A DNA stretch of 62,328 nucleotides, the filler included, from Stramenopiles sp. TOSAG23-6 (Eukaryota): assembly GCA_900128565.1 (NCBI GenBank). It is 33 parts of 33 records of this genome, joined end to end, with 100 filler letters (N's around TTAATTAATTAA, not from the genome) between each part and the next. Parts side by side here need not be neighbours in the genome. Positions count along the whole stretch, not along the records: positions 1,911 to 3,718 come from LT638575.1; positions 3,819 to 5,626 come from LT638576.1; positions 5,727 to 7,531 come from LT638577.1; positions 7,632 to 9,436 come from LT638578.1; positions 9,537 to 11,339 come from LT638579.1; positions 11,440 to 13,241 come from LT638580.1; positions 13,342 to 15,143 come from LT638581.1; positions 15,244 to 17,043 come from LT638582.1; 25 more parts are not named here. One strand, written 5' to 3'. Below are positions 1,911-60,625 of this stretch, in pieces. Positions within the stretch are counted from its first letter, which is position 1. Every line of letters begins with the position of its first letter. The notes under the pieces were generated by a model. That model did no database searches. It saw only the letters and a list, made by a program, of their open reading frames with translations, and was not told the DNA's origin. Both the position numbers and the translations under genes were made by a program.

Positions 1911-1987
1911 ATTTATTTTTTTTTTATAGTAAATTTTGTACCTAACAAATTTTCAATTTTTTTTTGAAATATTTTTCCAAAATACAT

Positions 1988-2715
1988 GGGTTATTAGGAC
2001 ATCGATTTTGCCTTTTAACGCCAGAGTATCAAAAAGCGTTTGCTGAATGTTTTGTTCAACAATATGAAACTGTACATGTACGTTGTCAAATTTTTAAATT
2101 TCAAAAAAAAAAAAATTTCAAAAAAAAAAAAATTTCAATATTTTTTCGTAGATAATTTTGTACCTAATGAATTCATTTTTCTGAAAAAAAAAATATTTTT
2201 TACAATACATCGATTGGAAACGAATAAATTACGAAATGTTGCTAAATTTTTCGCACATTTACTTCATAATGATGGTATACCATGGACATCATTATCGTGT
2301 GTGTCCTTGACGATTGAAACAACAACGTGTTCGTTTTCATTATTTATTTCGATTTTTTTTTTCATAGGAAATTTTGTACCTAACAATTTTTTTTTTTTTT
2401 TTTTGAAATTTTTTTTTTTTTTGAAATTTTTTTTGTACCTAACAAAATAAATTTACATTGACATATTGTATCAAAATACAGCTGCTAGTCGTATTTTCAT
2501 TAAAATTCTATTCCAAGAAATTGTAGAATATTTGGGTTTGAATGAATTAAAAAGTCGTTTGTTCGACCCAACAATGGAAAAATATTTTGCAGGTTTGTTC
2601 CCGAAGGATAATCCAAAAAGTACNCGATTTTCTATTAATTTTTTCACTTCCATTGGTCTTGGCGCTCTAACTGATGAATTACGACGATATTTAAAAAATG
2701 CTCCGAAACGACTTT
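1988..2715 (+). CDS. CWC22: Pre-mRNA splicing factor CWC22, MA3 domain (partial; exons 1988-2077, 2211-2328, 2482-2715)
   Basis: Spliced product GLLGHRFC...[24 protein letters not shown]...[17 protein letters not shown]...[20 protein letters not shown] matches CWC22 signature. Confidence 0.95.
2078..2210 (+). mobile_element. Introner-like intron, GT...AT
   Basis: gtacat|GTACGTT...TACAATACAT|cga; removal restores TVH|RLET of CWC22. Confidence 0.9.
2329..2481 (+). mobile_element. Introner-like intron, GT...AG, two branch motifs
   Basis: acgt|GTTCGTTTT...AAAATACAG|ct gives TTTSASRIF (conserved TTSSSRIF). Confidence 0.85.
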
Positions 2716-3917
2716 GTATGTTTTTTTATACAATTATTACCTATTATCAGTTATCATCATGTTTTTTTTACAAAATGTAAATACTAACAAAAAAAAAAAA
2801 AAAAAAAAAAAAAATTTTTTTTTTTTTTTTTTTTTTTTTTGTTAGTATTTACATTTTGTAAAAAAAACATGATGATAACTGATAATAGGTAATAATTGTA
2901 TAAAAAAACATACAAAGTCGTTTCGGAGCATTTTTTAAATATCGTCGTAATTCATCAGTTAGAGCGCCAAGACCAATGGAAGTGAAAAAATTAATAGAAA
3001 ATCGNGTACTTTTTGGATTATCCTTCGGGAACAAACCTGCAAAATATTTTTCCATTGTTGGGTCGAACAAACGACTTTTTAATTCATTCAAACCCAAATA
3101 TTCTACAATTTCTTGGAATAGAATTTTAATGAAAATACGACTAGCAGCTGTATTTTGATACAATATGTCAATGTAAATTTATTTTGTTAGGTACAAAAAA
3201 AATTTCAAAAAAAAAAAAAATTTCAAAAAAAAAAAAAAAAAATTGTTAGGTACAAAATTTCCTATGAAAAAAAAAATCGAAATAAATAATGAAAACGAAC
3301 ACGTTGTTGTTTCAATCGTCAAGGACACACACGATAATGATGTCCATGGTATACCATCATTATGAAGTAAATGTGCGAAAAATTTAGCAACATTTCGTAA
3401 TTTATTCGTTTCCAATCGATGTATTGTAAAAAATATTTTTTTTTTCAGAAAAATGAATTCATTAGGTACAAAATTATCTACGAAAAAATATTGAAATTTT
3501 TTTTTTTTTGAAATTTTTTTTTTTTTGAAATTTAAAAATTTGACAACGTACATGTACAGTTTCATATTGTTGAACAAAACATTCAGCAAACGCTTTTTGA
3601 TACTCTGGCGTTAAAAGGCAAAATCGATGTCCTAATAACCCATGTATTTTGGAAAAATATTTCAAAAAAAAATTGAAAATTTGTTAGGTACAAAATTTAC
3701 TATAAAAAAAAAATAAATNNNNNNNNNNNNNNNNNNNNNNNNNNNNNNNNNNNNNNNNNNNNTTAATTAATTAANNNNNNNNNNNNNNNNNNNNNNNNNN
3801 NNNNNNNNNNNNNNNNNNAAAAAAAAAAAAAAAAAAAAAAAAAATTCATACCAAACACAAATGTAACAAAAATGTCCTAATTTTTTTTTTTTTTTTTAAT
3901 ATTTTCCAAAAAAACAT

Positions 3918-5243
3918 GTCGATACTCAATCAAAGCAATTATTAGATGTGAGTAAACAACAAAGAAAAACACTCCAAGAATATCAAAATGTTGTTAGAGA
4001 AAAGAAGAAATTAAATGAAAAACTTCAAAATGAAGAATCGATGAGTAAAGACTATAAGAAACAAATTTCATCCTCAAGAAAATTACTTGAAAACGAACAA
4101 CGTCAACGAAAAGCTGAAGTTGGAAAATTAATGCGTGCGATTGAAGAAGTATCTTTTTATTTATTTTTTTTAGAAAAAATTGAAATTTTTTTTTCGTACG
4201 AAATTTTGTACCTAACAAATTTTTTAAGATTTTTTTGAAATATTTTTCCAAAATACAGGTACGTGGGTCATTTAAAATATCTCAACGCCAAGCAGCAGAG
4301 CAGGTCGCGTCTTTTAGCAGACGCATTCAAAGGGGTAATGTTGATGCAAATAACTTGACTGAAAAAAATGATGCATTGCGTCAAGAAGTTCGTCGACAAC
4401 AGGCAGCTGCAGATGCTGCAATGTATGTTTTATTTTTTTTTTTTTTTTTTTGGTACAATTTTTTTTTTTGGTTCAGATTGAAAAATGTAATGTAAAATAT
4501 CTTGGTTTAGAGTCTCGCAGCCGTGCAGATGTAAAACGTTTAAATGAAAAAATTGAGTCTTTACAATCCAAATCTGCCATTTTTGATAAAAGAATGAGTG
4601 ATGCAAAAGCAATGACTACAACAGCTGAAAGTCAACTTCAAGATGCCTTATTTAAAATTAAAAATCTAACAGCTCGCTTGACAGATGTACAAAATGAGGC
4701 AAAGGCATCTGATAAAGCAATGTTTGCTGCAAAGAAAAAACAAGAAGAAGCAGAGAAAAAGGCCCGAGAAACGAAAAACCTTTCTGTATGTTAAATTTTT
4801 TTTAAACGTTTTTTTTTTTTTAGTTTTTTTTATTATTTGTTTTACATTTTTAAAAAACAAAAAAACAAAACTAAATTCTTTACAATGTTGTTTTAAAACT
4901 TTTTTTACAATAATAATATAATAATACCTAACAAAAACATGTACAACAATAATATTTCTTCACCAAACATCAGAAAATCAAAACTTTGACTGCTGCATTG
5001 ACAAATGAACAAGAAAAAGTGAGAGATAAAGAAATCCAATTAGTTACTCTAAGAGAGGAAGAATCAGATACTAAAAAAACATTACAACAAGAATTACGCC
5101 AAAAAGAAACATTACTTGCAACAACAACTGCAAAAGTCGCAGGATTAGAAGATCGAATAAGAGCTGTACAGGATGATGCCAAGCAGACGTGTAGTGGTAT
5201 GTATGTTTTATTTATTTTTATTTACCGGAAAAAAAAAATCGAA

Positions 5244-5275
<32 letters not shown>

Positions 5276-5514
5276 ACCTAAAAAATTTTTTTTTTTTTTT
5301 TTTGAAAATTTTGTACCTAACAAATTTTCTTTGATTTTTTTTGAAATATTTTTCCAAAATACATGGTATTAAAATTGAAAGCTGCTGAAGAACGTTTTCA
5401 ATTAGACGTTGAACGGTTGCGCGGTGATGCAGAAGCTCAACGTCAAAGATTAAGAGATAATAGAGAAGATGGTGATCGTGCAGTTGAACGTTTAGAGGCA
5501 CAGTTGGGTCACAT
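3918..5514 (+). CDS. Coiled-coil protein (partial, multi-exon; introns 4149-4258 GT-AG, 4423-4478 GT-AT, 4786-4970/4973, 5201-5364 GT-AT)
   Basis: Heptad-rich frames join in phase after removing the repeated introns. Confidence 0.75.
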
Positions 5515-5877
5515 GTATGTTTTATTTTTTTTTTACAATTTTTTTTTTTTTTTTGAAAATTCAATTTTTTTTTTTTTTTTTTTTTTGTTTTTTTTTTCGT
5601 AAAAAAATTTTGTACCTAACAAATTTNNNNNNNNNNNNNNNNNNNNNNNNNNNNNNNNNNNNNNNNNNNNTTAATTAATTAANNNNNNNNNNNNNNNNNN
5701 NNNNNNNNNNNNNNNNNNNNNNNNNNACAACATTATCTGCATCTTTCAATGTCCATTACATCTGTCCTACACATTAGTCAAACTTCCTTATAAGATCTTC
5801 AATCATTTCAACGGGAAGTAGCGTATACTGTTGATTACTCTTCAGAAAGCGTTCAAGAATAGTAGCGTCTTTAGAAA

Positions 5878-6777: not shown

Positions 6778-7019
6778 CACACTTTTAGAAGTATTTGTAT
6801 GTGAAATATTGTTTCTTTGGTTTTTATAATTTGTAAAAATAAAATTTCAATTCACTCTAGATATAGAGTGATGATATTTATATACAAAGTTGATTAAGGT
6901 TAAGGGTTTTCTGTTACTGCATAAAGTAATATTTGCATTTGGTAACAATTTAGGTACCACTTCAGGCAATCCAGCCAAATATGTCAGATTTGTTCATTTT
7001 GAATTGGACCAGATAATAA

Positions 7020-7531: not shown

Positions 7532-7631
7532 NNNNNNNNNNNNNNNNNNNNNNNNNNNNNNNNNNNNNNNNNNNNTTAATTAATTAANNNNNNNNNNNNN
7601 NNNNNNNNNNNNNNNNNNNNNNNNNNNNNNN

Positions 7632-9436: not shown

Positions 9437-9632
9437 NNNNNNNNNNNNNNNNNNNNNNNNNNNNNNNNNNNNNNNNNNNNTTAATTAATTAANNNNNNNN
9501 NNNNNNNNNNNNNNNNNNNNNNNNNNNNNNNNNNNNTTTTATTTTTTTTTCAATTTTGAATTTATTTTTTTATAAAAATTTTGTACCTAACAAATTTTAG
9601 GTTTTTTTTTTGAAATATTTTCCAAAGTACAA

Positions 9633-9948
9633 GCAGTAATGCAACAATTACAGTCGACAATGGACCCACGTATGCTACAGCAGTTAGGTGGTGCGGGTAA
9701 TATGATGGAAATGATGAAGTCGATGGATATGTACGTTTTCAAAAAAAAAAATTTACCTACATTTTTTTTTTACCTACATTTTTTTTTGTACCAAATTCTG
9801 TACTTAACGATTTTTACCAAAAAACAATATTTTTTCACAAAACATGAGTGCATTAGGTGATATGATGAAAGGCGGTGGTAACCCACTCGAAGCTATGATG
9901 AAAGGTGCGGGTAGTCGTGGTGGTGGTCGTCGGAAAGGCAGACGCTGA
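9633..9948 (+). CDS. SRP54: Signal recognition particle 54 kDa protein, C-terminal end (intron 9731-9845 GT-AT)
   Basis: MQQLQSTMDPRMLQQLGGAGNMMEMMK Met/Gly-rich tail typical of eukaryotic SRP54. Confidence 0.75.
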
Positions 9949-11541: not shown

Positions 11542-13228
11542 TCTTTAGCAGATTGTGGCAATCAATATCTTCTCGCCCTAGGTATTAAAAAATCAGAAAA
11601 ATTACCCACTGGTGTTCACGTTTGTTTATAGTATTCATTTTTTGTATTTTTTGTATTTTTTTTATTTTTTCTATTTTTTCTATTTTTTGTATTTTTTTTA
11701 ATTAGGGTTAGGGTTTAATATCAAATACGAAAATTCCATTCCTACTGAAACAAAACCTAATGTTTTTTTTTTTAACTATAAAATATTGTTACACAATATA
11801 TCCATATGGTTATGCTAATGAAAGATACATTTTTGGTCTTATGTCAGGAGTTGGAATGTACGTTTTCATCATTTTTTTTTTTTTTTTTTAAATATTTTTT
11901 TTCGTACGAAATTTTGTACCTAACAATTTTTTTTAGATTTTTTTAGAATTTTTCAAACTACATCTTCTTCTTAGGTTGCGGGGTCACTTGTTACCATGGA
12001 CTCCATTTATTATTCAATCCACAACCTCTGGACAACCTTCCATTAGGAATAGGTATCATGGCAACTGCAGGAGCCATTGAAGGATACACTTTACACGTAT
12101 GTTGAATTTGTATTATTATTTTGAAAAAAAAATTGAAATTTTTTTTGAAATTTTTTTTTGAAATTTTTTTTTAGACGTCATTTAAAATAGCAAAAAAAAA
12201 AAAAAAACTAATTTTTTTTTTTTTTTGAAATACGTTTTCACAATATTTGTCGCCATTCAAGCCGTTCGTAATGCTGCAAGAGAAACAAGAATGACATTTG
12301 GAGATTATATTCGAAAAGGCCCAGATCCTGTACGTTTTTTTTTTTTTTTTTTACTTTTTTTTCAAATTCGAATTTTTTTTTTTCGTACGAAATTTTGTAC
12401 CTAACAATTTTTTTTTTTTTTTTACGGAAAAAAAAAATTTTGAAATATTTTTCTACAATACATGTATCNACGGCTGTATTATTAGAGGATGGAGCTGCTG
12501 TAACTGGCGTGTTTATTGCTGGATCTTGTATGGCAATGACCCACATAACTGGTAACTTACTATGGGATGCTGTAGGAACACTATTTGTTGGTGGTTTGCT
12601 AGGTGGTGTTGGTATAGTTATGGTACAAAAAAATAGAGAAATGTTGTTTGTGTTCATCATGCAATTCATTTAAAATTAAGTTTTTTTTTTTTTTTTTTTT
12701 TTTACCTAACAAAAAACAATTTTGATTTTTTTTTTTCACAATGTATGGTTGGTCGATCTGTAGACCCAAAGAGGTTGAAAGAATTAGAAGATATACTAGA
12801 AGAGGATAGTATGATTACTGCTGTTCATGATGTATGTTTTTTTTTTTTAATTTCCAAAACATTTTTTTTATAGTAAATTTCGTACCTAACAAGAAATTTT
12901 AGATTTTTTTTGAAATATTTTTCCAAAATACATGTAAAGGCAACAATCACAGGAGCCGACGATGTTAGATTTAAAGTAGAAATTCAGTTTAATGGTATTA
13001 ATTTGGCAAGAAAATATATTCGAGATCATGTTTGTTATTTTTACAAACCCTAACCCTAACCCTAGTGTAATTTTTTTTTGAACTTTTTTTTTTTTTGAAC
13101 TTTTTGTACCTAACACAAAAAAATCATATTTTATATTTTTTACAACACATCCTCGTGAAATTGCAAAAATGCCAAGTACAATAAACACGCAAGCAGATTT
13201 AGAAGTGTATCTACAAGTGTTTGGAGAT
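11542..13228 (+). CDS. SLC30A9: Cation diffusion facilitator ZnT9/SLC30A9-like (partial; 8 exons, 9 family introns)
   Basis: Spliced SLADCGNQYLLALG...HPYGY...SGVGIFFLG...DPVSTAVLLEDGAAV...LVGRS...VHDVKAT...RFKVEIQFNG is collinear with ZnT9/MTP7; introns 11620-11801, 11858-11963, 12097-12248, 12330-12463, 12646-12746, 12832-12933, 13030-13150. Confidence 0.92.
12330..12463 (+). mobile_element. Introner-like intron, GT...AT without upstream AT (register-diagnostic)
   Basis: gat cct|GTACGTT...AATACAT|gta keeps conserved DP; shifting to an xx...AC register gives DH. Confidence 0.88.
12832..12933 (+). mobile_element. Introner-like intron, GT...AT, near-consensus copy
   Basis: cat gat|GTATGTTTT...CCAAAATACAT|gta aag restores HD|VKAT. 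Confidence 0.9.
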
Positions 13229-13484: not shown

Positions 13485-14230
13485 ATGGGTGACCATAGAA
13501 GAGATGATTGCATGAAGGTTGTTGTATGGTTGTGTCCTTTTAATTCCCAAGAAAAACGCAACTGACATCAACAGATTGTCTCAATGAATCTTCCCATTAA
13601 TCATTGTGTTATTGATAATCCAGGAAAATGTGATAGTTCATCTAATGATATTCAACAAAAACTAGTCAACGGAGACAGTAAAAAGTTCACGTTTGATTGT
13701 GTCTTTGACATGAATGTCACACAAGAGGAAGCATACGAGGAAACTGGTTATAAGCTTGTAGAGAGTGTGATGCAAGGCTTTAATGGTACGATATTTGCGT
13801 ATGGACAAACATGGTGTGGGAAAACATTTTACAATGCAAGGCGTTGATGATTCACCTGAGCTTAGAGGTTTGATTCCTTGTGCATTTGACCACTTATTTG
13901 AAAACAATTGTGCATCAGTTACTACAGAATATTTAGTTCAAGCTTCGTACCTAGAAATATACAACAAGGAGGTCCGTGATTTGGTTGGAGTTGATTCTAA
14001 AAAAACACTTGAACTGAAGGAGCATCCAGAAAAAGGCGTTTACATTAAAGGCTTAAGCACACAAGTTGTAGAGAGTGTTGCAGCAATTGAAGATGTCATG
14101 CGCAAAGGTTTTGCTAAAGGAGCAGTCGGCTTGACAATGATGAATGCAGAATCATTGCACTCACATTCTATATTTACTATTGTAATTGAGTCAAACACAC
14201 CTGATGAACAAGGTAATTTTGTAGTACACC
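13485..14230 (+). pseudogene. Kinesin-2-like motor domain pseudogene (truncated)
   Basis: [25 protein letters not shown] motifs; in-frame TGA 13563, frameshift ~13830, damaged P-loop (GQTWCGK) and switch I (SLHSH). Confidence 0.85.
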
Positions 14231-14742
14231 ATCCAAATTTTAGTATCCAAATCTTAGTTGTAAATAGGTCCCGAAATAGTAAGTAGGTCCCGATTCCCGA
14301 AATAGTCGCCAATTGACATGTCAAAAAAATTCAAAAAAAAAAAAGGGGTTTTTTTCTATGTGACGTCATTTTTGTAAAATTATTTTTGTGACGTCATTTT
14401 TGTAAAAATATTTTTGTTTCCGACGGAAATTACACGAAAAATGAGTATTCCGTTGGAAACTCTTTGGTAAACACGAAATATCGCGTAAAAAAAATAAAAA
14501 AATCTAATCGGATCTCAGTTCATTTTTGAAATTAGTGGGAGGTAAAAAATAAATTTGTGGCAAGGTTGCAGACCAGAGTATAAAAATTCATACCACAATT
14601 TTTTTTGTATTCATCTCTAAAGATGCTGTAATATGCCCATTGGATGGCCAATAAGCCGAATCATATTTTTTTGACAGTTTTTTTTTTCACCAAAGTGAGT
14701 GGTATTTTTGTAGAACACTTGTTTCACTAAAATCAAAAAGTG

Positions 14743-15292: not shown

Positions 15293-16691
15293 CAACAACC
15301 TATTTTACAAATGGCGGAAAAATGTATACAATTATTAGGGTTTGATGATATTTCATATAAAACAAAAATGGCATCTGTGAATTGTCTCCTTCAAATCTGT
15401 CATAGTTTACGTATATTTCAGTATAATATTCGTATAACAAGTGCTGATATAAAACGTTTTGTATATATATTGTTGGATGGAATATCAAATTGTGAAGCTC
15501 AAATAAAAACACGAAAAACATTTCAAAATGTTCAAAAACAAATAACACAAATAACACAAATAACACAAATAATAAAAACAAAAATGTTGAAACAAAAAAA
15601 CTGCATCACAAATGCATGAAAAAAAGTGCAATATTATGTTTTGAAACGTTATTCACAACACCGCCTCATTCCGGAAAAAAATCTTGGTTTTTACGTGAAA
15701 TGATACCAGATATAATTCTTTCTCATAGATACATTCATTTTTAGAGATTTTTAATGTTTCATTATTTTCGATGAATTGTGATATATTCAGACCTAACATT
15801 GGAAAACTACTATATTTTGGAAAATATTTCAAAAAAAATCTAAAAAAATCGTAATGTAAATATAATCAAAATATTTGCTTTAATTGCATCTAAACCACGT
15901 CAACTGCCATTGAATGGTTCTATTGTAGCTAATTTGTTGTATGGTGTTGTACCGGTTATAGAAATGTGCACTTTGATATTTTCAAATCCTTCTCAATATT
16001 TTCAAACAACACAAAACACACGAAATCCATCAGATGTACAAAACACACGAAATCCACCAGATATACATCATTGCAAATTGAATTGTACACAAAATGAAAT
16101 ATTTGACCTTTTGAAAAATACATTTGAGTTATTATTAGCATTATTACAATATAGGCCACAACAAATGAGGAACTGTTTACCGATATGTATGTTTTTCATT
16201 ATTCATTTCAATTTTAAATTTCAAAATTAAATTTCAATTTCAATTTTAAATTTCATTTTTTTCAATACAAAATTGTATACCTAACAAAACAATCACAATA
16301 TTTTGAAATATTTTTGCAAAATACATGCACAACAATTATTCGAAACGTCTTGAGGTTATACTGTACATATCCTACACAATTGCCTCTGGATTCATTACAA
16401 CTTTTGACACGTGTCATTGAAACTATGAATAATGAAACGTTACAAAGTGCGACTCGTCATCATGCGGTGTATATTCTATATGATTATTGTACTATTGCAT
16501 CGTCACTTGTAATACCGATACCTCTTAATGTCAATGCAATTTTAAAAATTGGAATTTTTTATATATTAGATACATGCACAAAACACGAATTACAGCAACT
16601 TCATGTTATGTTGAAGCCTCCAGGGAGAGCTTATTTGAAGTTGTTACATCAGAGCTACTTGAAAGAACACAAATATCATGGAAATGTATAG
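15293..16691 (+). CDS. URB2: URB2/Npa2 nucleolar protein, C-terminal part (intron 16187-16326 GT-AT; 15590-15865 unresolved)
   Basis: C-terminal GIFYILDTC...LQQLHVML...GRAYLKLLHQSY...KYHGNV matches the Urb2 domain pattern. Confidence 0.72.
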
Positions 16692-19100: not shown

Positions 19101-20773
19101 TTAGCTGCTACGAACACCTCCATTCCTTTCGGTATTGAAGAGATTCTTTTAAATGGTACAATGCGTATTGAATTCTACCGTTTTACATCTGCGTTGCCTC
19201 CATTTGAGGAACTATCTGTATCTTTCGTGGGTCTTCCTAGATTAGAATATTCTTTAAAAGCACTCTCAGATGTTTTCAATCCAGCCTCATGTATGTTTTA
19301 TTTTTTTTTGTATGAATTTTTTTTAGTACGAAATTTTGTACCTAACAAAAATTTAATTTTTTTTTGAAATATTTTTCCAAAATACATGGCCTGGCGTCAA
19401 GGGAAAGATTAGACAGGGAATCATAGACTCTCTTGAAACATTAATGGTATGGCCCAATCGCATTGCTACGCCTCTCGTAGAACAAGAATTGACGACGGAA
19501 AGAGACATCTTGGAGATTGCACTGCTAGATGCAGAAGTATTTAATCGTGGTAACAAGCCTAATATTTTTTGTAGGGTTCAATTTGGCGAAACAAATAAGA
19601 TCATAAACACTGAAAAACAAATGGAAGAAACGAGTGTAGTTTGGAATACAAACACACCCACTTGGAATACTGAAGTGTATCTACATATAAATCCAGCGCA
19701 GATAAAATCTTTGCCTACGATATCTGTATGGAGTTATAAACCAGATTCTTACATTGGCGAAGTAAATATGCGTTCATTAAATAAAATGGTTGAATGTGAA
19801 ATTTATGAAGATTGGCTTACGTTCCGAAACAAAAAAAATGGTGTGGAAGGTAGAATTCACGTAAAATCAAGATTAAAACAAAACGTTGATAATGATGAAA
19901 ATAATGAAATTTCTACACTCTCTACTGAAATTGGTATGAATATGAATAGCAAACATGCTAATGATAAAAGTGATGCTACTGGTGTATTAAAAGATAGCCT
20001 TAATGCATCAAATAAACATCCAGAAACACCTAGAAAAACTATAAAAAGTCAAACATCTAGTACCATAAATACTATTGAGGGGGTCGGGCTTGGACTGAAC
20101 CCTAACCCTAATGGAAATATTGATACACATATTTTCAACCCACACGGATCAGGGTCTTTAATACAACCACGTGGAAATCTACTCTCCTCTCGTGAACTCA
20201 AGATTACTAAAACGATGTACGTTTTTATCATTTTAAAAAAATCCAAAATTATTTTGTTTTACTATGAAAAAATTCTAAATATAATTTTTTTTCAAAAACA
20301 AAAATATTTTTTCACAATATATATTATCAGTATTTAAAAGTATTTTTTCTGGGTCTGATTTGGTAGAGTGGTTACTTAGAAGTGACTATTGTTCATCTAT
20401 GGCAGAAGCTGTAAATATTGGTAAAAAATTGATTAGTGTATATGCGTTATTACCAGCTCAAACTGAACATTTCCCAGGAAATTCTACATCTAGTTATATT
20501 GTACATGTATGTTTTATTTTTTTTTTAACAAAAAATTCGATTTTTTTTTTCGTACGAAATGTTGTACCTAACAAATTGAAATTTTTTTTTTGAAATATTT
20601 TTCCAAAATACATGTTCTTGTAAAAGTCCAATTAGAACTGACAAAACGAAAGGTAGATATTTTACCTGAGTTAAGATGTATTTTAGAGGGTATGAGTCGT
20701 CTTACCTTTGATGTAGATGTCGAAACATTTCGAAATTCCATGAAACAATCTTCACTGAAAAAACTTTTATCAT
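19101..20773 (+). CDS. SMP-C2-DEP domain protein (partial; GT-AT introns 19291-19387, 20217-20322, 20507-20613)
   Basis: SMP-like GTMRIEF...PPFEELSVSF...VWPNRI; C2-like TPTWNTE; DEP-like FSGSDLVEWL. Confidence 0.7.
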
Positions 20774-21859: not shown

Positions 21860-22735
21860 TTATCTCGATACAGCATCTGCTGGAGCGAGTGAGTTATGAT
21901 CAAAAACACCAGAATCGATTTTTCTATTTAGATGGTCTAGGCAACGTATAGATAAATCAAAACGACTCAATGATGTACGCATTTTTGTCTTATGCACATA
22001 ATTGCCTCTTCCTGTAGGACTAAATCTTGTAGGTTTTGGAACCCATTCTCTCTTTCTAGAACTTCCAATACGACCACCAGCATACGCAGTAACAGGTCTA
22101 GTATTTCTACTTGTCAATTTATCTATTGAATGCCATGTATTTTGGAAAAATATTTCATTTTTTTTTCAATTTATTAGGTACAAAATTTCGTACGAAAAAA
22201 AAATCGAATTTGAAAAAAAATAAAACATACATGAATAATCATTAGGTTTACGATTTCTAATTGGTTTACCTAAAATCTGACGGAATAATAAGTCATCATT
22301 ATTCTGTTGAGATTGTTTACGATATTTTTGACATGATACATTTTTATTTTCCATTGCATAGTGTTGACCATTTGTTTTAATAATGTCAAGTTTCCCACAT
22401 ATCCCACATCGATCAATACCTGATCCATTTTCACATCCACACACTTGACACTTCCACCACGTTTTTTTTCCTTTTATTAAAGAAGGATCTTTTACTTTTG
22501 TCCTACGTTTAAATCGCTTCTCCGAAGATCCTTGTTCAAGCCAATCTGTAAATTCATTGACAGATAATTCTCCATTTCCGTCTATATCAACTGCATGAAA
22601 TATGAGCTCCAGTTCTGAATCTGACGTCTTTGTTTTGCTTATTTTAGCATCCCTTCGAAGAGCAGTGATGAACTCTTTAAGGTCTAAAGTTCCATCATTA
22701 TTTCGGTCATAAAAACGAAATAACTTTTCAAAATC
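21860..22735 (-). CDS. EF-hand plus RanBP2-type zinc-finger protein (3' part; GT-AT intron 22230-22135)
   Basis: DRNNDGTLD and DIDGNGELS loops; WKCQVC...N...C..C; frames join as DYS|WHS. Confidence 0.75.
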
Positions 22736-32199: not shown

Positions 32200-32453
32200 N
32201 NNNNNNNNNNNNNNNNNNNNNNNNNNNNNNNNNNNNNNNNNNNTTAATTAATTAANNNNNNNNNNNNNNNNNNNNNNNNNNNNNNNNNNNNNNNNNNNNT
32301 TTTAGATTTTTTTTGAAATATTTTTCCAAAATACATGTATGTTTTATTACCCCTTTACGAATGAGTATCTTTTTATATTTTTATATTTAATGTCTTTTTA
32401 ATAACTCAACAAAACAAAACTTTATATCATATGTACTAAGTCGTACACTACAT

Positions 32454-35288: not shown

Positions 35289-35659
35289 NNNNNNNNACAT
35301 CCAAAGACAGTTCGATAGGCCAATGGTCCGAAACTGATTTAATTTGATTCCTTGAAAGCTGATATTCGGAACCAAAATCAAATGGCTGAACTCCAGTAAT
35401 TCATGTATAGTTAACAAATATGCAAAATTCATAATTTGTTTAATATAAAACCATTTTCAATGAAAAAAATTGACAAATTTGAAATTCCAAATTGAAATTG
35501 AAATCTGAATCGTTTTCAATGAAAAAAATCATTCGGTGAATCGTTTTCAATGAAAAAAAAATAAATTTGACAAATTTGAAATTGAAATGAATGCCCAACA
35601 CGCTATGTAGGCGGGTCAAAACATGTTAGTTAGGGTGAGGGTTAGGGTCGAAAACGGAC

Positions 35660-35941
35660 GTTTGATACAATCACTACAACCTCCAGCATGTATTTTGGAA
35701 AAATATTTCAAAAAAAATCGTTAATTACAAAATTTCGTACGAAAAAAAAATGATATTGAAAAAAAATAAAACATACAAACACAAATCTGTCATACGCACA
35801 AGTTGAATTTGGTGTTGTGGTAGTATCAACATCATTGTCAATGAGCCAAGTATATTTTTTGGGATTCCATAATCGCATTGTGTGAGTTTCACACTTTGGA
35901 GATTTTATACATTTCCACTTTGTTTTATTCAGATAAGTGCA
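35660..35941 (-). CDS. DNase I-family nuclease fragment (GT-AT intron 35776-35688)
   Basis: CTYL...YTWLIDNDVDTTTTPNSTCAYDRFV matches DNase I WLI...DTT...CAYDRIV. Confidence 0.75.
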
Positions 35942-51186: not shown

Positions 51187-52849
51187 GATGGTTCTCTACA
51201 AGAGTCTGGAAATTCTTCAGAGCTCAAAGCAAAATATGGTCAAGGATATCACCTTGAGCTTGGTATTGAAGCTGGCACTGATCGCCGAGATATTTTCTCT
51301 TTGATAAACAAAAACATCAGAAAAACACTTGTAAATAAATCAAATAAAATGGAATTTGATGTGTTGAAAGATGGTGCAAAACTTGATATTGTTGATATTT
51401 ATCATGATGAGGAAATATTTAATGAAACAATTGAAAAGACACTTTCAGATAAGAGTGCTACTGATTTAAGTATGTATGTTTTATTTTTTTTTTTTTAGTA
51501 AATAATTTTTTTTTCGTACGAAATTTCGTACCTAACGATTTTTTTAGATTTTTTTTGAAATATTTTTCCAAAATACATTCTACTTCCATTACATACCGAT
51601 GTACCAACCATGTTAGAAGAACTCCAAAAAGCAAAAGAAGATCCATCAAGCGGTATTATCAATTTTAACGTCATGGAAAATACTCTTGAAGATGTGTTTT
51701 GGGAATTGAACCAGGCAGCTGATCTTGAAAAGGATGCGACTAATTCGACTTGTCTATGGAAACAAATGCCAAAAAGTGAAAATTTTACTCAAGCATCACA
51801 GGCTCCATCATTAAATTACAAAATACGTATTTTGTTGCAGAGGAAATTCAAGTCATTTTATCGGTCAATGCCTACAATTCCAGGTACGAATCTTCCCATA
51901 CCATTCCAACAATTTTTTATAATGGGAATGCTGATTGCTGGTATGTTGATGACTTCGCTAGATTTCGAACCTGAAGAAAATCCTCCATGTGTGTTTTTAT
52001 TTTTTTTTTGTTTTCGAAAAAAAAAAAATCGAATTTCTTTTTTCGTACGAAATTTTGTACCTAACAAATTTTTTTAGATTTTTTTTGAAATATTTTTCCA
52101 AAATATATTACTTGTTGATCTATCTCCATCATCTGTGTTTGGACAACGCGGTCGATTAGCTTTACCATATAGTACTACTTCCAATGCGTCATACAATGTC
52201 ACAGGAAGTGTATGTTTTCATTATGAATTTCAAATTTATTATTTTTTTCGTACGAAATTTTGTACCTAACAAATTTCGAATTTAATTTTTTTTACAATAC
52301 ATGCTGTCTTGCCTTATCTTGATACAATGTCGTCAAGCGATACTTTACTACCGTTACCCATCAGCACAAGTTCATTTCTCGCAAATACATGTATGGCAGC
52401 GTGGTTATTACATGTACGTTTTCACATCATTTTTTTTTTATTAATTTTTTTTTCATAGGAAATTTTGTACCTAACATTTTTTTTTTCAATTTCGAATTTA
52501 TATTTTCACAATACATGTTTCTGATCCGAATGCATGTTATGTTCCACCAAAGTCTGACAGAAATTCACCTAACCCGAATCCTGTATCTAGTCCAGGATCA
52601 ACATTAGGATTTCCTGGTGCTCTGAGTGGCACAGCTGGTGCTATATTATTTGATAATGATGACCCTACATCAAAATCATTTCATTATACGTATACAGTAT
52701 TGCCTAATACAATGAATACTTTGGCATTTCCTAGTATAGTGAATTATATTAACAATGCTATTTTTAAGTATATTACAAAGAATACAGACACATTCAATAG
52801 CATACGTTCAAAGTATCAACAAATGCCAGAAGCAGAGAAATCTGATACT
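51187..52849 (+). CDS. ABCA-family transporter, internal part (GT-AT introns 51474-51578, 51989-52108, 52210-52302, 52414-52516)
   Basis: GSLQESGNSSELKAKYGQGYHL and TLEDVF motifs that follow ABCA NBD1. Confidence 0.82.
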
Positions 52850-54817: not shown

Positions 54818-54917
54818 NNNNNNNNNNNNNNNNNNNNNNNNNNNNNNNNNNNNNNNNNNNNTTAATTAATTAANNNNNNNNNNNNNNNNNNNNNNNNNNN
54901 NNNNNNNNNNNNNNNNN

Positions 54918-56682
54918 CTCACGTTTAGTTGACTTACTTTTCCACAAGAACTCAGAAATTCTGGAGCAGGCAGCAAGTGTGCTCCGGCATCTAGCATTTG
55001 AGCCAAGCAATAAAGGTTTATTAGGCCGTTCTAGAAATTGTGTCCGGGGTTTAGTTAGTCTCTTATCTGAACAGCAACGTCCAATTATTCAAAAAGAAGC
55101 TGCCGCAACGTTGTGGGGTTTGGCTTGCGACGCAGATAACAAAGATGTTATTGGAAGTTTTCCTGGTGCACTATCAAGTATGGTCCGTTTACTAGAATCA
55201 AATGTCCCCGCAGTGTTAGAGAAAGTTGCTGGAGCATTAATGAACCTTGCGTGTACTGTCACAAATATAGAACTAATTGGTCAGGAAAAAGGTGCAGTTA
55301 GTGGTCTAATTCGTTTGATTGGAAGCAACCACCTTAATCGTACTTCAAATAAAAACGTATGTGAATATGCATCTGGAACTCTTCGAAATCTGGCATGTAA
55401 TAATGATGAGAACAAAACGCGTATAGGTGAACATCCTGGGGCTATACCTAGGCTAGTGCAACTACTTCATGAACCTTTATCAAGTATTCAAGGACATGCC
55501 GCTGGTGCATTGCGTAATTTAGCTTGTAACCATCCTGAAAACAAAACTCGCATTGCAAATTGTGATGGAGCTTTAAGTGGTCTTGTTGCTCTACTTCGTG
55601 AAAAAGAAGCAACACTTCAAAAAGAAGCTGCAGCTGCCCTTTGGGGTCTGGCATCAAATGATAGAAATAAACGCTTGATTGGTTTGGAACCTGGAGCAAT
55701 ATCTGGTTTAGTTCATTTGCTTTCTCCTAATTTCAAACACGAAGTTCGTCAAAAGGCCATTGGGGCGCTTTGGATGCTTGCAAGTGATGATNNNNNNNNN
55801 NNNNNNNNNNNNNNNNNNNNNNNNNNNNNNNNNNNNNNNNNNNNNNNNNNNNNNNNNNNNNNNNNNNNNNNNNNTCTTTTATCTCTAGGTACTGATGCTC
55901 CAACTAAAATTCTCATAGTTTGTTGTAATGGTGTTGGTGTTTTAGCTGCAATTCGGCGTAAGTGTAAAGTGAAGCGTCTGTTACTTTCAGAGAAAGATTT
56001 TGTTCCAGAGAAATTTAAAATCTCAAAAGAAGTTCAACTTTTAGAAACGACTTTATCAAATGTTATTCGAAAACCGGAAAATCACAGTTTAATTGAGACT
56101 GTATATCTAGCTTCAAACAGAAAACGACGGATTTATATAGCATGTGCGCTTATGCTTGAAATGTATCCTTATCCAACTACAATAGATTCTACAAGTGACT
56201 TGTCTAGAGATCATGGTAACATTCCACGTCATCATGAAGAACAATCAGTCTTGCAATCAAGACCATATAGACCAATACGAATGCAAAATTTTCCCGGAAC
56301 TGGAACTCGTAATATTCTCTTGGGTCAAAATCTTAATGAAGGTAATGAATCAACAACAATAACAGTGAATGATGAATCTCACTCAGATGAAGTCACAAAT
56401 GGAGATGATGAATCTCTTCATGGTTTGAATGAAGAACAAGATGATACACTTTTCCATCTTCGTGAACGTCCTGTAGTATCGGAGAGAGAAGCTTTGTATG
56501 AAAAAAATATGCTTCAATGGATGGATGCGCCAATGCTATTACTCGACACCTTACGTAGTACCAATTGGTCTCAAGATATTCGAATTTTAGCATTAACAGC
56601 CTTAGTACGTCAAATGGAAATCCTACCAAATGGTTTACCTACGATACCGATCCCTCAGTTCCTTCGCTTTGCTCCCTCTCAT
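54918..56682 (+). CDS. Armadillo-repeat protein (partial, gapped)
   Basis: Repeated AAGALRNLA/AAATLWGLA...GAI..LV.LL units. Confidence 0.88.
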
Positions 56683-56917
56683 GTATGTTTTATTTTNNNN
56701 NNNNNNNNNNNNNNNNNNNNNNNNNNNNNNNNNNNNNNNNTTAATTAATTAANNNNNNNNNNNNNNNNNNNNNNNNNNNNNNNNNNNNNNNNNNNNTTTT
56801 TTTTTCGTACGAAATTTTTTCCCTAAACAAAAATTTTTTTTTTTTTTTTTTTTGTAAAAGTTTTTTTTTATCTAACGACTTTTTTCTTTTTTCAAAAATT
56901 TTATTTTTACAATACAT

Positions 56918-57806
56918 TTACTCTACCATGATAATAATCCTAAAAAAGCACTTGAACTCGCTGCTGCTGCAACTGAAGTCAATAAATATGCGTATGTTTT
57001 ATTTATTTTTTTTTTAACCGAAAAAAAAAAATCGACTTTTTTTTTTTCATACGAAATTTTGTACCTAACAATTTTTTTTTTTACGGAAAATTTTTTTTGA
57101 AATATTTTTTCAAAGTAAACAGATTGGTTTTGGAAACACCGACTAGGAAAATGTTATTATAGATTAGGTTTGTACAGAGATGCCGAGAAACAATTTATGA
57201 GCGCACAAAAACAACAAAATATGACAATAATTATATTAGATTTGGCCAAAGTTTGTATGTGTTTGTCATTCATAATTTTTTTTTTGGTTTCGTACGAAAT
57301 GTTGTACCTAACAATTTAAAAAAAAATTTTGAAATTTTTGAAATTTTTTTTTTGTACGAAATTTTGTACCTAACATTTTTTTTAAAAAAAATTTTGAAAT
57401 ATTTTCCAAAAATATATTTCTGAAAATGGACCAACCAAATTCTGCATTAAAAATATATACCGACTATTTAAACAAATATCCAGGAAATGTTTCAATTCTG
57501 CGTGCAAAAGCTCGAATTTTAGATATGTTGCAAAATACTGAACAATCAACAATTTTATACAAACAAATTCTACGCGTTGATGTTTGTTTCCATGATACAT
57601 TTCAAAAAAAAACAATTTCGTACGAAATTCTGTACCTAACAATTTTTTTTAGACTTTTTCTCCAATATTTTTTCACAATTTATGCTGCATGTATTGAATC
57701 TATTTCATGTCTTGCAACCAATCATTTTTATTCAGATCAACCTGAAGTTGCACTTTTTTACTATAGACGTTTGGTACAAATGAATGTGTACATTTTTTTT
57801 ATACCT

Positions 57807-57838
<32 letters not shown>

Positions 57839-58465
57839 CATACCTGCCCATTTATTTTGATGTTATATGTGTGTGATATATTTTTTACGCTACATATGAG
57901 TGCTATATGGAACAATATTGGACAAGTAGCCATTGGGATTGGTGACTTAGGCTTAGCGTACCAAACTTTTAAAATTTCTCTTTCTATTGACTCAAATAAT
58001 TGTGATGCGTATGTATGTTTTTTTATTTTCAAATACGATTTTTTTTTTTTTGGTTTCGTACGAAATTTTGTACCTAAAAAAAAATATTTTTTTTTATTTT
58101 CAAATACGAATTTTTTTTTTTTGGTTTCGTACGAAATGTTGTACCTAACAAACATTGATTTTTTTTTTGAAATATTTTTCCAAAATACATACAAATCTTG
58201 GTGTATTAGAACTTCGTAAAGGTCCGTTAACCCTAACCCTAATCATGATTTTTTTTTCAATTTTTTTTTTTTGGTAAAAATTTTTTGTACCTAACGATAT
58301 TTTTTTTTTAATTTTAATATTTCACAAAAAATAGGTAGTATAGCAAATGCGAGAGCCAATTTTGATACAGCTGTCCGGTTATCAAATAATCATTCCTTTG
58401 AAGCATCATTTAATGGTGCTTTAGTTGCGTATAAAATGGGTCGTTTTCAAAAAAGTTGGCAACTA
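56918..58465 (+). CDS. TTC8: BBSome subunit BBS8/TTC8 (partial, 7 visible exons)
   Basis: DWFWKHRLGKCYYRLGLYRDAEKQF, NHFYSDQPEVALFYYRRLVQM, VAIGIGD, AYTNLGVLELRKG; introns 56992-57120 AC, 57255-57417 AT, 57582-57683 AT, 58013-58190 AT, 58222-58334 AG. Confidence 0.95.
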
Positions 58466-58716
58466 GTGAGTCGATCATTATGAATTTTTTACCTAAATTT
58501 TTTTTTTTTGGTTTTTTTGTTTTTTTTGGTTTTTTATAAAAATTTTGTACCTAACAAATTTCGAATTTAATTTTNNNNNNNNNNNNNNNNNNNNNNNNNN
58601 NNNNNNNNNNNNNNNNNNTTAATTAATTAANNNNNNNNNNNNNNNNNNNNNNNNNNNNNNNNNNNNNNNNNNNNAAAATTTTTTTTTTTTTTTTTTAAAA
58701 TTTTTTAGGTAAAAAA

Positions 58717-58748
<32 letters not shown>

Positions 58749-60593: not shown

Positions 60594-60625
<32 letters not shown>

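Follow-up and report, generated by a model that had tools for sequence, protein, structure and literature searches.

Repeated introns with GT..AT ends in unrelated genes of Stramenopiles sp. TOSAG23-6

Unrelated genes of Stramenopiles sp. TOSAG23-6 carry a family of repeated introns that begin with GT and mostly end with AT. AG is the near-universal 3' end of introns, and in the literature we found no described genome dominated by GT-AT introns. Within the whole stretch of DNA analyzed (62,328 nucleotides, hereafter the window), we curated 39 complete introns, consisting of 38 guided by the family and one non-family intron in ORC1. Each of the 39 begins with GT, and the 3' ends are AT (33), AG (4), AC (1), and TT (1), in a list that was built via the family and therefore under-counts AG introns. 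The set excludes copies cut by N masks and copies in the inverted duplicate at 2815–3720. An initial annotation had described this GT..AT family, which we confirm; its hand count over 43 copies (35 AT, 5 AG, 1 AC, 1 TT, and 1 ambiguous) was close to ours, and its claim of near-constant sense orientation holds, as each of the 38 complete copies guided by the family runs in the same sense as an open frame. It had called the family genome-wide, for which the basis is one 62-kb window plus thousands of contigs bearing the element in seawater runs. It had not mentioned the exonic AT repeat, the conserved 3' 10-mer, or the coexisting GT-AG introns described below.

Removal of the element from HSP70 RNA

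The annotation had taken the elements to be introns removed from RNA, and we found this in polyA metatranscriptome contigs. In the HSP70 gene, contig X8 record 26 (298 nt) joins 42192–42345 directly to 42463–42576 with 0 mismatches, removing intron A28 (42349–42465; cat/GTTTGT..ACAT/ct, exon letters in lower case; plus strand, as are all features below unless minus is stated), whose exons match the solved chain 7kw7_C up to residue 455 and from 456. For the next intron, A29 (42579–42678; at/GTATGT..ATAT/ta), X8 record 26 ends at 42576, and both X8 record 27 and X11 record 8 begin exactly at 42677; the flanking exons correspond to 7kw7_C residues up to 492 and from 494 onward, and the split codon to residue 493. 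A mask-cut copy upstream in the same gene, of which the 3' part is present (41740–41797; ..CCAAAATACAT/gt), is followed by an exon that X8 record 25 fits from 41796 on, and this contig has another 69 letters upstream of that point. RNA support comprises one direct and one indirect joint, both in HSP70 and both at introns with the AT repeat. What is shown is exact excision of the element from mRNA, beginning at the G of GT and ending with the last T of its 3' block. The coordinates initially given for A28, and those for 12330–12463 in the ZnT9-like gene, were both exact.

Intron boundaries in reading frames and homologues

We compared the open codons running across each junction after exact removal with those after removal with shifted ends (given below as exact versus shifted). 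For 33 of the 38 introns guided by the family, exact removal gave the strictly longest open frame; three tied (A32, B8, and A41) and two did worse (A10 and A35), and homologue alignment settles both of these failures. For fifteen junctions (11 AT, 2 AG, 1 AC, and 1 TT), a gap-free alignment to homologues or solved chains requires that the element be taken out exactly. Gap-free matches had been claimed for five genes; they stand for CWC22, HSP70, ZnT9-like, and BBS8, and in ORC1 they hold for the GT-AG intron 46663–46801 only.

In CWC22, the exons around A2 (2078–2210; at/GTACGT..ACAT/cg) match contiguous residues 508–537 and 538–576 of 5mqf_T, in agreement with the frame test, and those around the two-core copy A3 (2329–2481; GT..ACAG) correspond to residues up to 576 and from 578 on, 577 being the split codon. 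The 3' part of a mask-cut copy (1913–1987; ..ACAT/gg) precedes an exon that aligns from its first residue, at 1988, to 5mqf_T 508. The ZnT9-like gene, which encodes a cation-efflux protein, was compared with homologue P0001. At A10 (11620–11801; ac/GTTTGT..ATAT/cc, with TTAGGG repeats inside) the tblastn pieces abut (TGVH/PYGY); the alignment is gap-free at A11 (11858–11963; at/GTACGT..ACAT/ct); A11b (12097–12248; GTATGT..CACAATATTT) ends in TT, the only boundary fitting P0001 264–266 (50 versus ≤15); and A14 (12832–12933; at/GTATGT..ACAT/gt) is an exact 34-codon insert.

BBS8 was compared with P0003 and P0004. Gap-free junctions were obtained at the two-core copies A36 (57255–57417; tt/GTATGT..ATAT/tt), against both, and A38 (58013–58190; at/GTATGT..ACAT/ac), against P0003, and A37 (57582–57683; at/GTTTGT..TTAT/gc) is an exact 34-codon insert against both. 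For A37b (57786–57895; at/GTGTAC..ACAT/at) the frame test gives 107 versus ≤16, and the junction lacks alignment confirmation because the homologues have an additional TPR repeat there. A39 (58222–58334; ag/GTCCGT..ATAG/gt, with CCCTAA repeats; 24 versus ≤8) differs in length from the homologues by one residue.

ORC1 lies on the minus strand. Its non-family GT-AG intron X2 (46663–46801; at/GTAAGG..ATAG/ac, with CCCTAA repeats) separates exons matching 4xgc_A 149–187 and 188–209. The frame test is the sole basis for its family copies: B4 (45952–46074; at/GTACGT..ACAT/tt; 61 versus ≤36) and two two-core copies with weak results, B3 (46129–46316; at/GTACAT..ACAT/gt; 26 versus 25) and B2 (46409–46599; tc/GTACGT..ATAT/gt; 21 versus 19), the downstream exon of B2 having no PDB match.

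Elsewhere in the window the frame test was applied to A4 (4149–4258; GTATCT..ACAG; 78 versus ≤33), A5 (5201–5364; at/GTATGT..ACAT/gg; 78 versus ≤13), A8 (9731–9845; at/GTACGT..ACAT/ga; 33 versus ≤10), A15 (13030–13150; at/GTTTGT..ACAT/cc, with CCCTAA repeats inside; 30 versus ≤16), A20 (20217–20322; at/GTACGT..ATAT; 89 versus ≤18), A21 (20507–20613; at/GTATGT..ACAT/gt; 74 versus ≤24), the two-core copy A25 (41347–41522; at/GTACAT..AAAT; 25 versus ≤6), A30 (51474–51578; at/GTATGT..ACAT/tc; 98 versus ≤29), A31 (51989–52108; at/GTGTGT..ATAT/ta; 52 versus ≤16), and A33 (52414–52516; at/GTACGT..ACAT/gt; 48 versus ≤42), and on the minus strand to B7 (44471–44575; at/GTACNT..ACAT/gt; 73 versus ≤8) and B6 (44777–44877; at/GTACGT..ACAT/gt; 177 versus ≤13). 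Pfam domains name three further host genes: Urb2/Npa2-family (A17, 16187–16326; at/GTATGT..ACAT; 114 versus ≤30), C2-domain (A19, 19291–19387; at/GTATGT..ACAT; 83 versus ≤16), and EF-hand (B9, 22135–22230, minus; at/GTATGT..ACAT; 90 versus ≤13). The ties are A32 (52210–52302; gt/GTATGT..ACAT/gc), B8 (35688–35776, minus; tt/GTATGT..ACAT/gc; 23 versus 23), and A41 (39900–40032; at/GTACAT..ACAT/ca), which is also an nhmmer hit.

Family structure and splice signals

The element measures 90–190 nt and occurs at about one copy per kb in the genes of the window. An alignment of 26 copies has three conserved blocks: 5' GTAYGTTTT, a central T-run-CGTACGAAATTTTGTACCTAAC, and 3' T-run-CAMAATAYAT; they stand out against a pairwise identity among 29 copies with a median of only 62% and a maximum of 86%. 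Allowing ≤3 mismatches, the 25-nt core TTTCGTACGAAATTTTGTACCTAAC is matched 30 times versus 0 in 100 shuffles, and nhmmer with an HMM of the family returns 67 hits (E≤0.01) in the 62 kb. The evidence supports one introner-like family inserted in unrelated genes, as the annotation had proposed, and it is probably transposon-derived; we found neither an autonomous element nor an empty site or a presence/absence allele. Folding of the two HSP70 introns backed by RNA contigs is no better than that of shuffles (z +0.92 and +0.72), so a terminal hairpin is not needed. The window is AT-rich (26–36% GC) and comes from an uncultured marine protist with the cilium gene BBS8. It appears to derive from a single-cell assembly and contains assembly errors (single Ns, a kinesin with a frameshift, and one palindromic duplication).

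Within 37 introns, +1 is G and +2 is T throughout, +5 is G in 32, and +6 is T in 36; at the other end, Y occupies −3 in 35 and A occupies −2 in 36, and T (33), G (3), or C (1) occupies −1, whose place in the element is constant. The predicted retention of GT, GTAYGT, CTAAC, and A at −2 with a variable −1 is borne out. The central block ends in the perfect branch-site motif TACCTAAC, present in 28 of 36 introns at distances mostly of 33–59 nt, with the branch A a median of 42 nt from the 3' end; A20 is without the CTAAC motif. No snRNA was found in the 62-kb window.

The 3' site is signalled by a conserved 10-mer instead of a dinucleotide. In BBS8, A35 (56992–57120; gc/GTATGT..GTAAAC/ag) ends in AC and leaves unused an AG 2 nt downstream; the reading frames of P0003 and P0004 require removal of 129 nt, and use of that AG was rejected, as taking out 131 nt shifts the frame. 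A24 (41116–41225; ct/GTACGT..ATAT/tt) ends in AT and leaves unused an AG 7 nt downstream (45 open codons for the AT end, 19 for the AG end at 41232), and the TT of A11b occupies the equivalent position in the 3' block. We infer that the cut follows position in the extended 3' block and not the end dinucleotide.

The exonic AT repeat and the proposed mechanism

The upstream exon ends in AT at 25 of 33 AT-ending introns versus 1 of 6 others (Fisher p=0.011), against a background of 10.9% for AT preceding GT. The insertion site resembles the palindrome CATG (C at −3 in 14/37, G at +1 in 20/37), and the exonic repeat looks like a 2-bp target-site duplication. Where the exon also ends in AT, mRNA alone fits GT..AT, TG..CA, and AT..AC (or AT..AT) equally, and the chemical cut could equally lie 1–2 nt further left in these copies, giving AT..AC introns. 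Such ends are possible in no more than 20 of the 38 introns guided by the family and impossible for A29. The introns that decide the register, with one or two homologues each, include two whose exons end in ct and tt. A12 (12330–12463; ct/GTACGT..ACAT/gt), without the AT repeat, separates residues aligned as GPDP-V-STAVLLED in the window and GSDP-M-NTAVLLED in P0001, and only the GT..AT register preserves the conserved proline; A13 (12646–12746; tt/GTTTGT..GTAT/gg) is gap-free against P0001, and its leucine is kept only as GT..AT. We prefer GT..AT because it is the sole register fitting all copies.

The best reading, which we consider fairly probable, is that the elements are introners excised by a U2-type spliceosome to which YAU is acceptable. 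The element would have inserted as DNA at (C)AT(G) sites, duplicating AT, and because AT is duplicated, excision from GT through the second AT would restore the original coding sequence. The spliceosome would follow a Y-A-U/G rule at the 3' site, not Y-A-G, retaining Y at −3 and A at −2 and being indifferent at −1, with the extended 3' block, not the dinucleotide, placing the cut. Several observations count against this reading. A YAT at −15 (most copies) and a YAG at about −31 (9 copies), which lie downstream of the branch motif and upstream of the used site, are all skipped; the GT-AG intron 46663–46801 is likewise preceded by exonic AT; in three of the five remaining non-AT introns (A3, A35, and A11b) the exon carries no repeat of the intron's own end; and the inverted terminal repeat is just 5–6 nt (ATGTAT/ATACAT). 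A minor-type or distance-measuring system with a branch near the 3' end could act instead, and the invariant A at −9 (37/37) and the T at +7 to +9 may point to it. Overall, the interpretation of the initial annotation is partly supported, the modified major spliceosome that it put forward being a hypothesis. The proposed restoration of coding sequence through a duplicated AT has a precedent in PMC9860276, where some introners bring their own 5' site and co-opt a 3' site from the duplication.

The window and its repeated introns

The window is AT-rich (GC 0.26–0.36 in 4-kb bins) and is masked about every 1.9 kb by twelve bases with 44 N on either side (3,330 N in total). It encodes CWC22, HSP70, ORC1, BBS8 and a cation-efflux (ZnT9-like) protein and, in addition, NDK, PP2C, 2-oxoacid dehydrogenase E2, an MFS transporter, and Arm, C2, EF-hand and Urb2 proteins. 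Its 31-mers are present in seawater metagenomes, seawater metatranscriptomes and three small DNA runs of 2015 (one organism), and the source is therefore a marine protist; because the window holds a BBSome gene (BBS8), the organism was presumably flagellated. At Rfam gathering scores there were no families and no snRNA in the window, and ARAGORN predicted no tRNAs in it.

A core 25-mer of the repeated element had 30 matches in the window at ≤3 mismatches, compared with none in 100 shuffles, and a family HMM built from 26 aligned copies gave 67 matches at E ≤ 0.01. Because two automatic callers based on open frames proved too noisy, we curated the introns by hand and arrived at 39, consisting of 38 complete introns curated via the family and one non-family intron in ORC1; copies cut by masks and copies within the inverted duplicate at 2815–3720 were left out. 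All 39 introns start with GT, while 33 end in AT, four in AG, one in AC and one in TT; AT ends 33 of the 38 family-guided introns. The initial annotation had counted 35 AT, 5 AG, 1 AC and 1 TT ends among 43 copies, a tally that ours approaches once the mask-cut and inverted-duplicate copies are added. As in introners, many related copies (38 complete, plus partial ones) sit in unrelated genes, here those for CWC22, HSP70, ORC1, BBS8, the cation-efflux protein, and C2-domain, Urb2 and EF-hand proteins, and every complete copy lies in the sense orientation of its host.

The copies share one anatomy. The upstream exon, which usually ends in (c)AT, is followed by GTAYGTTTT, then by a variable A/T-rich spacer of 20–80 nt that often includes the palindrome TTCGAA, a T-run leading into CGTACGAAATTTTGTACCTAAC, an A/T stretch of 12–35 nt, and finally (GAA)ATATTTTT and the terminal CAMAATAYAT; the next exon has G as its first base in 20 of 37 cases. 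Pairwise identity among 29 copies of 85–140 nt has a median of 62% and a maximum of 86%, and the three blocks are therefore far better conserved than the remainder of the element. Several introns contain two cores (at 2376–2443, 41405–41487, 46129–46316 (−), 46409–46599 (−), 57282–57374 and 58050–58149), and removal of these tandem or nested copies still takes out everything between the outermost GT and the outermost 3′ block in one piece. At 32301–32352 the 3′ end of a family copy (..CCAAAATACAT) runs immediately into GTATGTTTTATT, the start of another 5′ block, and two elements may abut there without an intervening exon. Two perfect 12-nt palindromes occur in the element (examples at 12378–12389 and 12364–12375); TTTCGTACGAAA directly precedes the branch motif, while AAATTCGAATTT belongs to the spacer and is found in some copies. 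They may be binding sites for proteins of the mobile element or features of the RNA, and GTAC is found at three places, namely the 5′ end, the centre and the branch motif. Scanning metagenome contigs with the 25-nt core returned no matches, and scanning them with a 19-mer returned two loci, both unrelated chance matches, with no further copies and no empty sites.

The assembly behind the window contains errors. The stretch 1911–3720 is a perfect inverted duplication, in which 1911–2815 recurs as its reverse complement in 2815–3720, with the turn in an A-run/T-run near 2815, so that the CWC22 exons and three family copies are each present a second time; this is probably not biology but a whole-genome-amplification chimera or an assembly artefact. 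A pair of open frames, each 424 residues long and both on the minus strand (58751–60025 and 60628–61902), lie 1,877 bases apart in identical surroundings, each with a family copy at its start (58700–58794 and 60577–60671), and represent either a tandem duplication or an assembly repeat. A kinesin motor segment at 13771–14286 covers Pfam positions 85–220 of 327, with the adjacent upstream P-loop region out of frame. Downstream exons were sought at this locus and none were found, and the segment is either a pseudogene or a product of sequencing errors; with its reading frame broken, the kinesin gene was dropped as a sample of non-family introns.

Removal from RNA and placement of the cut

The comparison with RNA covered the mask-free HSP70 stretch 41740–43524, with junctions taken from the positions of contig pieces, since the listed joints were repeat-to-repeat joints from other loci; parts of the stretch lacking RNA cover were given no weight. 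In record 26 of X8, a polyA-selected seawater metatranscriptome run, 298 nt join 42192–42345 directly to 42463–42576 without a mismatch or gap. With a CAT at each border, the 117 nt that the contig leaves out can be read in four registers (i.e., ways of placing the same cut), one of which is 42349–42465 with GT..AT ends. At the next HSP70 intron, X8 record 26 ends on 42576 with 30 further letters, and X8 record 27 and record 8 of a second seawater RNA run, X11, begin exactly at 42677; these contig ends fit a 100-nt skip read as AT..AT, TG..TA or GT..AT only, and exclude AT..AC. RNA support consists of this one direct and one indirect joint, both in HSP70.

Protein alignments extended these observations to other genes. 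The initial annotation had claimed that removing the element restores gap-free matches in CWC22, ZnT9, HSP70, ORC1 and BBS8; we could reproduce this for all but ORC1, where alignment spanned only a non-family intron. Against the solved HSP70 chain 7kw7_C, three exons match up to residue 455, 456–492 and from 494, with codon 493 split, and against the CWC22 chain 5mqf_T, exons match 508–537, 538–576 and from 578, with codon 577 split. The cation-efflux protein aligns with its homologue P0001 (55% identity) across six gap-free junctions (11620–11801, 11858–11963, 12097–12248, 12330–12463, 12646–12746 and 12832–12933), and BBS8 with its homologues P0003 and P0004 (67%) across four (56992–57120, 57255–57417, 57582–57683 and 58013–58190). 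In ORC1, exons matching residues 149–187 and 188–209 of the solved chain 4xgc_A flank the non-family intron 46663–46801, the second piece being weak (E 0.63). The 30-residue ORC1 exon after 46409 had no PDB match, and the family copies in this gene, which look gap-free, therefore rest on reading frames. The 15 gap-free junctions comprise 11 AT, 2 AG, 1 AC and 1 TT ends, and 14 of them belong to the family; together with the RNA joint 42345/42463, these 14 show the removal from mRNA and restoration of coding sequence that characterize introners. Counting all 17 introns within homologue-aligned stretches gives 12 AT, 3 AG, 1 AC and 1 TT, a tally that includes 57786–57895 and 58222–58334, whose borders rest on evidence other than alignment. 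At the former, about 38 residues (one TPR repeat; residues 221–258 of P0003) are missing from BBS8 relative to both homologues. We also sought near-identical, transcript-derived proteins spanning the junctions, for which the best relatives had 55% and 67% identity.

A frame test that requires no homologue, in which the longest frame open on both sides was compared as the 3′ end was shifted from −2 to +2, placed the exact boundary strictly best in 33 of 38 introns. Three were ties (52210–52302, 35688–35776 (−) and 39900–40032) and two were worse (11620–11801 and 56992–57120), the boundaries of these two being fixed by homology; in the BBS8 case the frame test called AG at 56992–57122 where homology gave AC. 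The element is thus absent from mRNA between the G of its GT and the end of its 3′ block.

Within these boundaries, most splice signals are those of a conventional intron. The 5′ site, GTATGT in 14, GTACGT in 10 and GTTTGT in 5 of 36 introns, is complementary to U1 and U6, with G at +5 in 32 and T at +6 in 36 of 37. The branch motif TACCTAAC is present in 28 of 36 introns, diverged copies included; the median distance between its branch A and the end is 42 nt, a T-run follows it, CTAAC stands 33–59 nt from the end in most copies, and T occupies positions −14 to −12 in 34–37 of 37, placing a CTRAY motif upstream of a pyrimidine tract. The conserved 3′ block reads, among 37 introns, C at −10 (29), A at −9 (37), A (18) or C (19) at −8, A at −7 (35), A at −6 (32), T at −5 (33), A at −4 (35), C (24) or T (11) at −3, A at −2 (36), and T (33), G (3) or C (1) at −1. 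These counts bear out the earlier proposal that the donor, the branch motif and A(−2) are retained while position −1 varies. The YAG end of U2-type introns was not the rule, with AG in 4 of 39 introns and with CAT (21) and TAT (10) predominating among the 37 tabulated.

Three introns indicate what sets the cut. The BBS8 intron 56992–57120 ends ..GTAAAC and leaves unused an AG two bases downstream, whose use would shift the BBS8 frame; 41116–41225 ends ..GTATAT and ignores an AG seven bases downstream, giving 45 open codons as opposed to 19; and 12097–12248 ends ..CAATATTT at the same position of the block. Block position therefore decides the cut, and the 3′ signal is the block rather than a dinucleotide. 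Upstream candidates are skipped as well: most copies have a TAT at −15, and nine have a YAG near −31. Two simpler rules were rejected: a cut at fixed distance from CTAAC, as distances range from 26 to 115 nt, and use of whichever YAT or YAG comes first downstream of the branch, as such triplets are skipped.

The upstream exon ends in AT in 25 of the 33 AT-ending introns versus one of the six others (Fisher p = 0.011), compared with 10.9% of GT dinucleotides elsewhere in the window. The border can be slid left by at least 2 nt in 26 of 38 introns, and the site resembles the palindrome CATG (C at −3 in 14 of 37, G at +1 in 20 of 37). The initial annotation, whose GT..AT register fits all copies, had missed this repeat, which makes GT..AT and AT..AC indistinguishable in mRNA for as many as 20 of the 38. 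Such a repeat is the pattern expected from a 2-bp target-site duplication; the transposition marks seen were this 2-nt repeat (25/33) and an inverted terminal repeat of only 5–6 nt, and neither an empty site nor a transposase was found for the family. In the eight AT-ending copies that lack the repeat, the upstream exon closes with ac, ct, tt, tt, ct, tc, gt and tt, respectively, yet each copy begins GT. We preferred GT..AT because it is the sole register fitting every copy. It also keeps a residue shared with the homologue in 12330–12463 (P) and in 12646–12746 (L), and this fit, with residue support from the one homologue P0001, weakly suggests that GT..AT is the true register.

GT-AG introns occur alongside the family, as three family copies and the non-family ORC1 intron 46663–46801; since the intron list was found through the family, this AG share is a lower bound. 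In 2329–2481 and 4149–4258 the last T of the block is G, and 58222–58334 has a body bearing CCCTAA. CCCTAA, which reads TTAGGG on the opposite strand, is present in two or three units inside introns at 13047–13066, 58229–58246, 46702–46722 (−), 35631–35655 (−), about 11695–11712 and about 18090 (−), several of them soon after a 5′ site GTCCGTT or GTTTGT. This telomere-like repeat contains CCTAAC, the branch motif of the family, and two of the introns that bear it (58222–58334 and 46663–46801) end in AG. The CCCTAA-bearing introns may form a second, older intron family.

Proposed mechanism and alternative readings

We propose that the element would be removed by a U2-type spliceosome that has kept GT within GTATGT, GTACGT or GTTTGT, the branch motif, Y(−3) and A(−2), and that accepts T, G or C at −1. 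The element would have spread as DNA, duplicating AT at its target, and a cut from its own GT through the duplicated AT would restore the gene. The same logic is described for introner families in which the element brings the 5′ site and the duplication provides the 3′ site (PMC9860276). The full reading is that in an abundant, uncultured marine flagellate the major spliceosome came to follow YAU instead of YAG as its 3′ rule, with −1 free and the cut placed by a 10-nt motif borne by the element; that the change was driven by, or permitted, an invasion of tens of thousands of copies whose AT target duplication supplied the last two bases; and that most introns of the genome are GT-AT while GT-AG is still processed. 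We give this reading an even chance of being correct.

An improbable competitor is a transformed minor-type (U12-like) or distance-measuring system, in which the branch would be the A at −9 (or at −7/−6), the cut would fall at a fixed 9 nt downstream irrespective of the dinucleotide there, and TACCTAAC would not be the branch site. A at −9 is present in 37 of 37 introns within a conserved 10-mer, CAMAATAYAT, and the cut position stays constant when the end is AC or TT, with neighbouring AG ignored. The 5′ block is conserved to +9 (T in 32–34 of 37), and conservation extending that far is typical of U12-type sites, whose branch motif lies about 10–26 nt from the 3′ end; CTAAC stands farther out than this in most copies. 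In favour of this system, too, one copy (4149) starts GTATCTTTT, a U12-like variant in Physarum, where GT-AT accounts for 17% of 1,014 non-canonical U12-type introns (10.1101/2020.10.12.336362). However, the context of the −9 A, CAMAAT, is unlike either branch consensus; a perfect CTAAC with its T-run is retained even in diverged copies, and conservation of the 3′ block could come from mobile-element ancestry. GTATGT and GTACGT are good U1/U6-type sites, and the family has G(+5) and T(+6) where the U12-type 5′ site [AG]TATCCTT has CC (10.1101/2020.10.12.336362). We regard as unlikely that the AT-flanked copies are truly AT..AC, members of the rare U2-type AT-AC class in which A(+1) pairs with C(−1), with GT..AT confined to degenerate copies. 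A1 paired with C−1 is known to work, at/GT....AC/AT with identical mRNA is the reading of 20 among the 38 family-guided introns, and the joint 42345/42463 permits four registers. Yet this would be impossible for the other 18, would turn 42579–42678 into AT..AT, would make ct, tt, gt, tc and ac, five different dinucleotides, the starts of the copies in which they precede GT, and would put GTAYGT two places off its U1/U6 register.

Two further readings are less likely still. Removal by pairing of the intron ends, as in euglenid and hemistasiid nonconventional introns or Amoebophrya hairpin introners, seems very unlikely to us. Exonic AT plus GTAT can pair with the 3′ ATACAT (4–6 bp), the stem appears in the minimum-energy fold of five of eight folded copies (19285, 20501, 51468, 52408 and 22129) with z < −2.6 in three of the eight, and direct repeats extend over the borders, as they do in Amoebophrya (PMC7789003). 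A required terminal hairpin was nevertheless rejected, as the two RNA-backed HSP70 introns are no more stably folded than shuffles (z +0.92 and +0.72; six other copies, −3.4 to +1.35), and GTTTGT copies show no compensating change at −5. Both the strong 5′ site with its branch motif and the uniform GT (39/39) also argue against it, the borders of those systems being described as having no dinucleotide signature (PMC7789003, PMC12621601); the variable borders, lack of U1 complementarity and end-joining structure of the euglenid type were not what we observed. The least probable reading, hardly credible in our view, is that the elements are excised at the DNA level, in the manner of ciliate internal eliminated sequences, and that mRNA comes from a processed genome. 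The elements are indeed short, AT-rich, gene-interrupting and flanked by short direct repeats, and among the matches listed no contig of the seawater DNA run X4 crosses an HSP70 exon–intron border, an absence to which we give no weight as evidence. But X4 has 4,797 contigs on the HSP70 stretch, nearly all on element parts, and the genes use the standard code without in-frame stop codons. The telomere repeats of ciliates are different, and their eliminated sequences are bounded by TA, while here the telomere-like repeats are of the CCCTAA type, the borders are not TA..TA, and the elements contain splice-site and branch motifs.

Meaning and relation to known introns

Under the reading of a relaxed major spliceosome, the family would be a natural experiment on 3′ splice-site choice, in which textbook 5′ and branch sites are combined with a change from G(−1) to U in most introns. 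It would bear on what needs G(−1), whether the G(+1)/G(−1) contact, U2AF1 or second-step proofreading. A mobile element's target duplication may have set a splice-site rule of its host, and if so, the introner model of a carried and a borrowed site extends to a non-AG site. In single-cell and metagenome assemblies, gene callers and splice-aware mappers that assume GY-AG will get almost all genes of this lineage wrong. Large introner surveys start from annotated GY-AG introns and as described would miss the family (PMC9860276, PMC12130899); the 2025 survey accepted AG and AC as sole 3′ ends and dropped families with unfamiliar sites unless RNA supported them (PMC12130899).

Neither introners nor genomes rich in non-canonical introns are new in themselves. 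The initial annotation knew of no described genome dominated by GT-AT introns, and our full-text literature search agreed, finding neither such a genome nor such a family with a canonical 5′ site and branch motif. The main text of single-cell-genome papers on marine protists made no mention of splice sites.

Introners have been reported from Micromonas, Aureococcus, Chrysochromulina, Symbiodinium and others, and the family resembles them, as described in these sources, in its related short AT-rich copies in unrelated genes, sense orientation, short direct border repeats and restored coding sequence (PMC9860276, PMC12130899). As in Chrysochromulina, the element supplies the 5′ splice site and the 3′ end would be duplicated target (PMC9860276). 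The introners of those accounts are GY..AG with duplications of 3–9 bp (PMC9860276, PMC12130899), whereas here AT closes 33 of 38 family-guided introns, the putative duplication (AT) measures 2 bp and the inverted repeat is only 5–6 nt.

Among genomes with unusual introns, Amoebophrya A25 and A120 are likewise marine protists with mostly non-canonical repeated introns, direct repeats at the borders and complementary ends; their introns are described as having no dinucleotide signature, inverted repeats of 8–20 nt forming hairpins, and no detectable U1 parts (PMC7789003), whereas here we find uniform GT..AT, a canonical 5′ site and branch motif, and end pairing of 4–6 bp without covariation. 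Fritillaria borealis has introns ending in AC or AT under a U2-type spliceosome, which we infer here as well, and a T-rich tract that can stand before non-AG ends; its U2AF is duplicated, and it shows that 3′-site recognition is able to evolve (PMC13326754). Both ends vary in Fritillaria, as reported, and fewer than 10% of its introns are GT/AG (PMC13326754), in contrast to the strict 5′ GT, yeast-like consensus, strong branch motif and single dominant 3′ end of this family. In the U12-type introns of Physarum polycephalum, GT-AT is likewise a recognised class, with a tolerant 3′ end and an extended 5′ motif; there, however, it makes up 17% of 1,014 introns in a genome of about 175,000 introns, and the non-canonical introns have 5′ [AG]TATC[CT]TT and a branch motif 9–12 nt from the 3′ end (10.1101/2020.10.12.336362), as opposed to a GT-AT majority, 5′ GTAYGT and CTAAC about 42 nt from the end here. 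Euglenid and hemistasiid diplonemid introns share a non-GT-AG majority and ends able to pair (PMC12621601, PMC6221363), and their described features of variable GC-rich borders, no U1 complementarity and YTRAY in only 2–16% (PMC12621601) are the opposite of what this family presents in its borders, its U1 complementarity and its branch motif.
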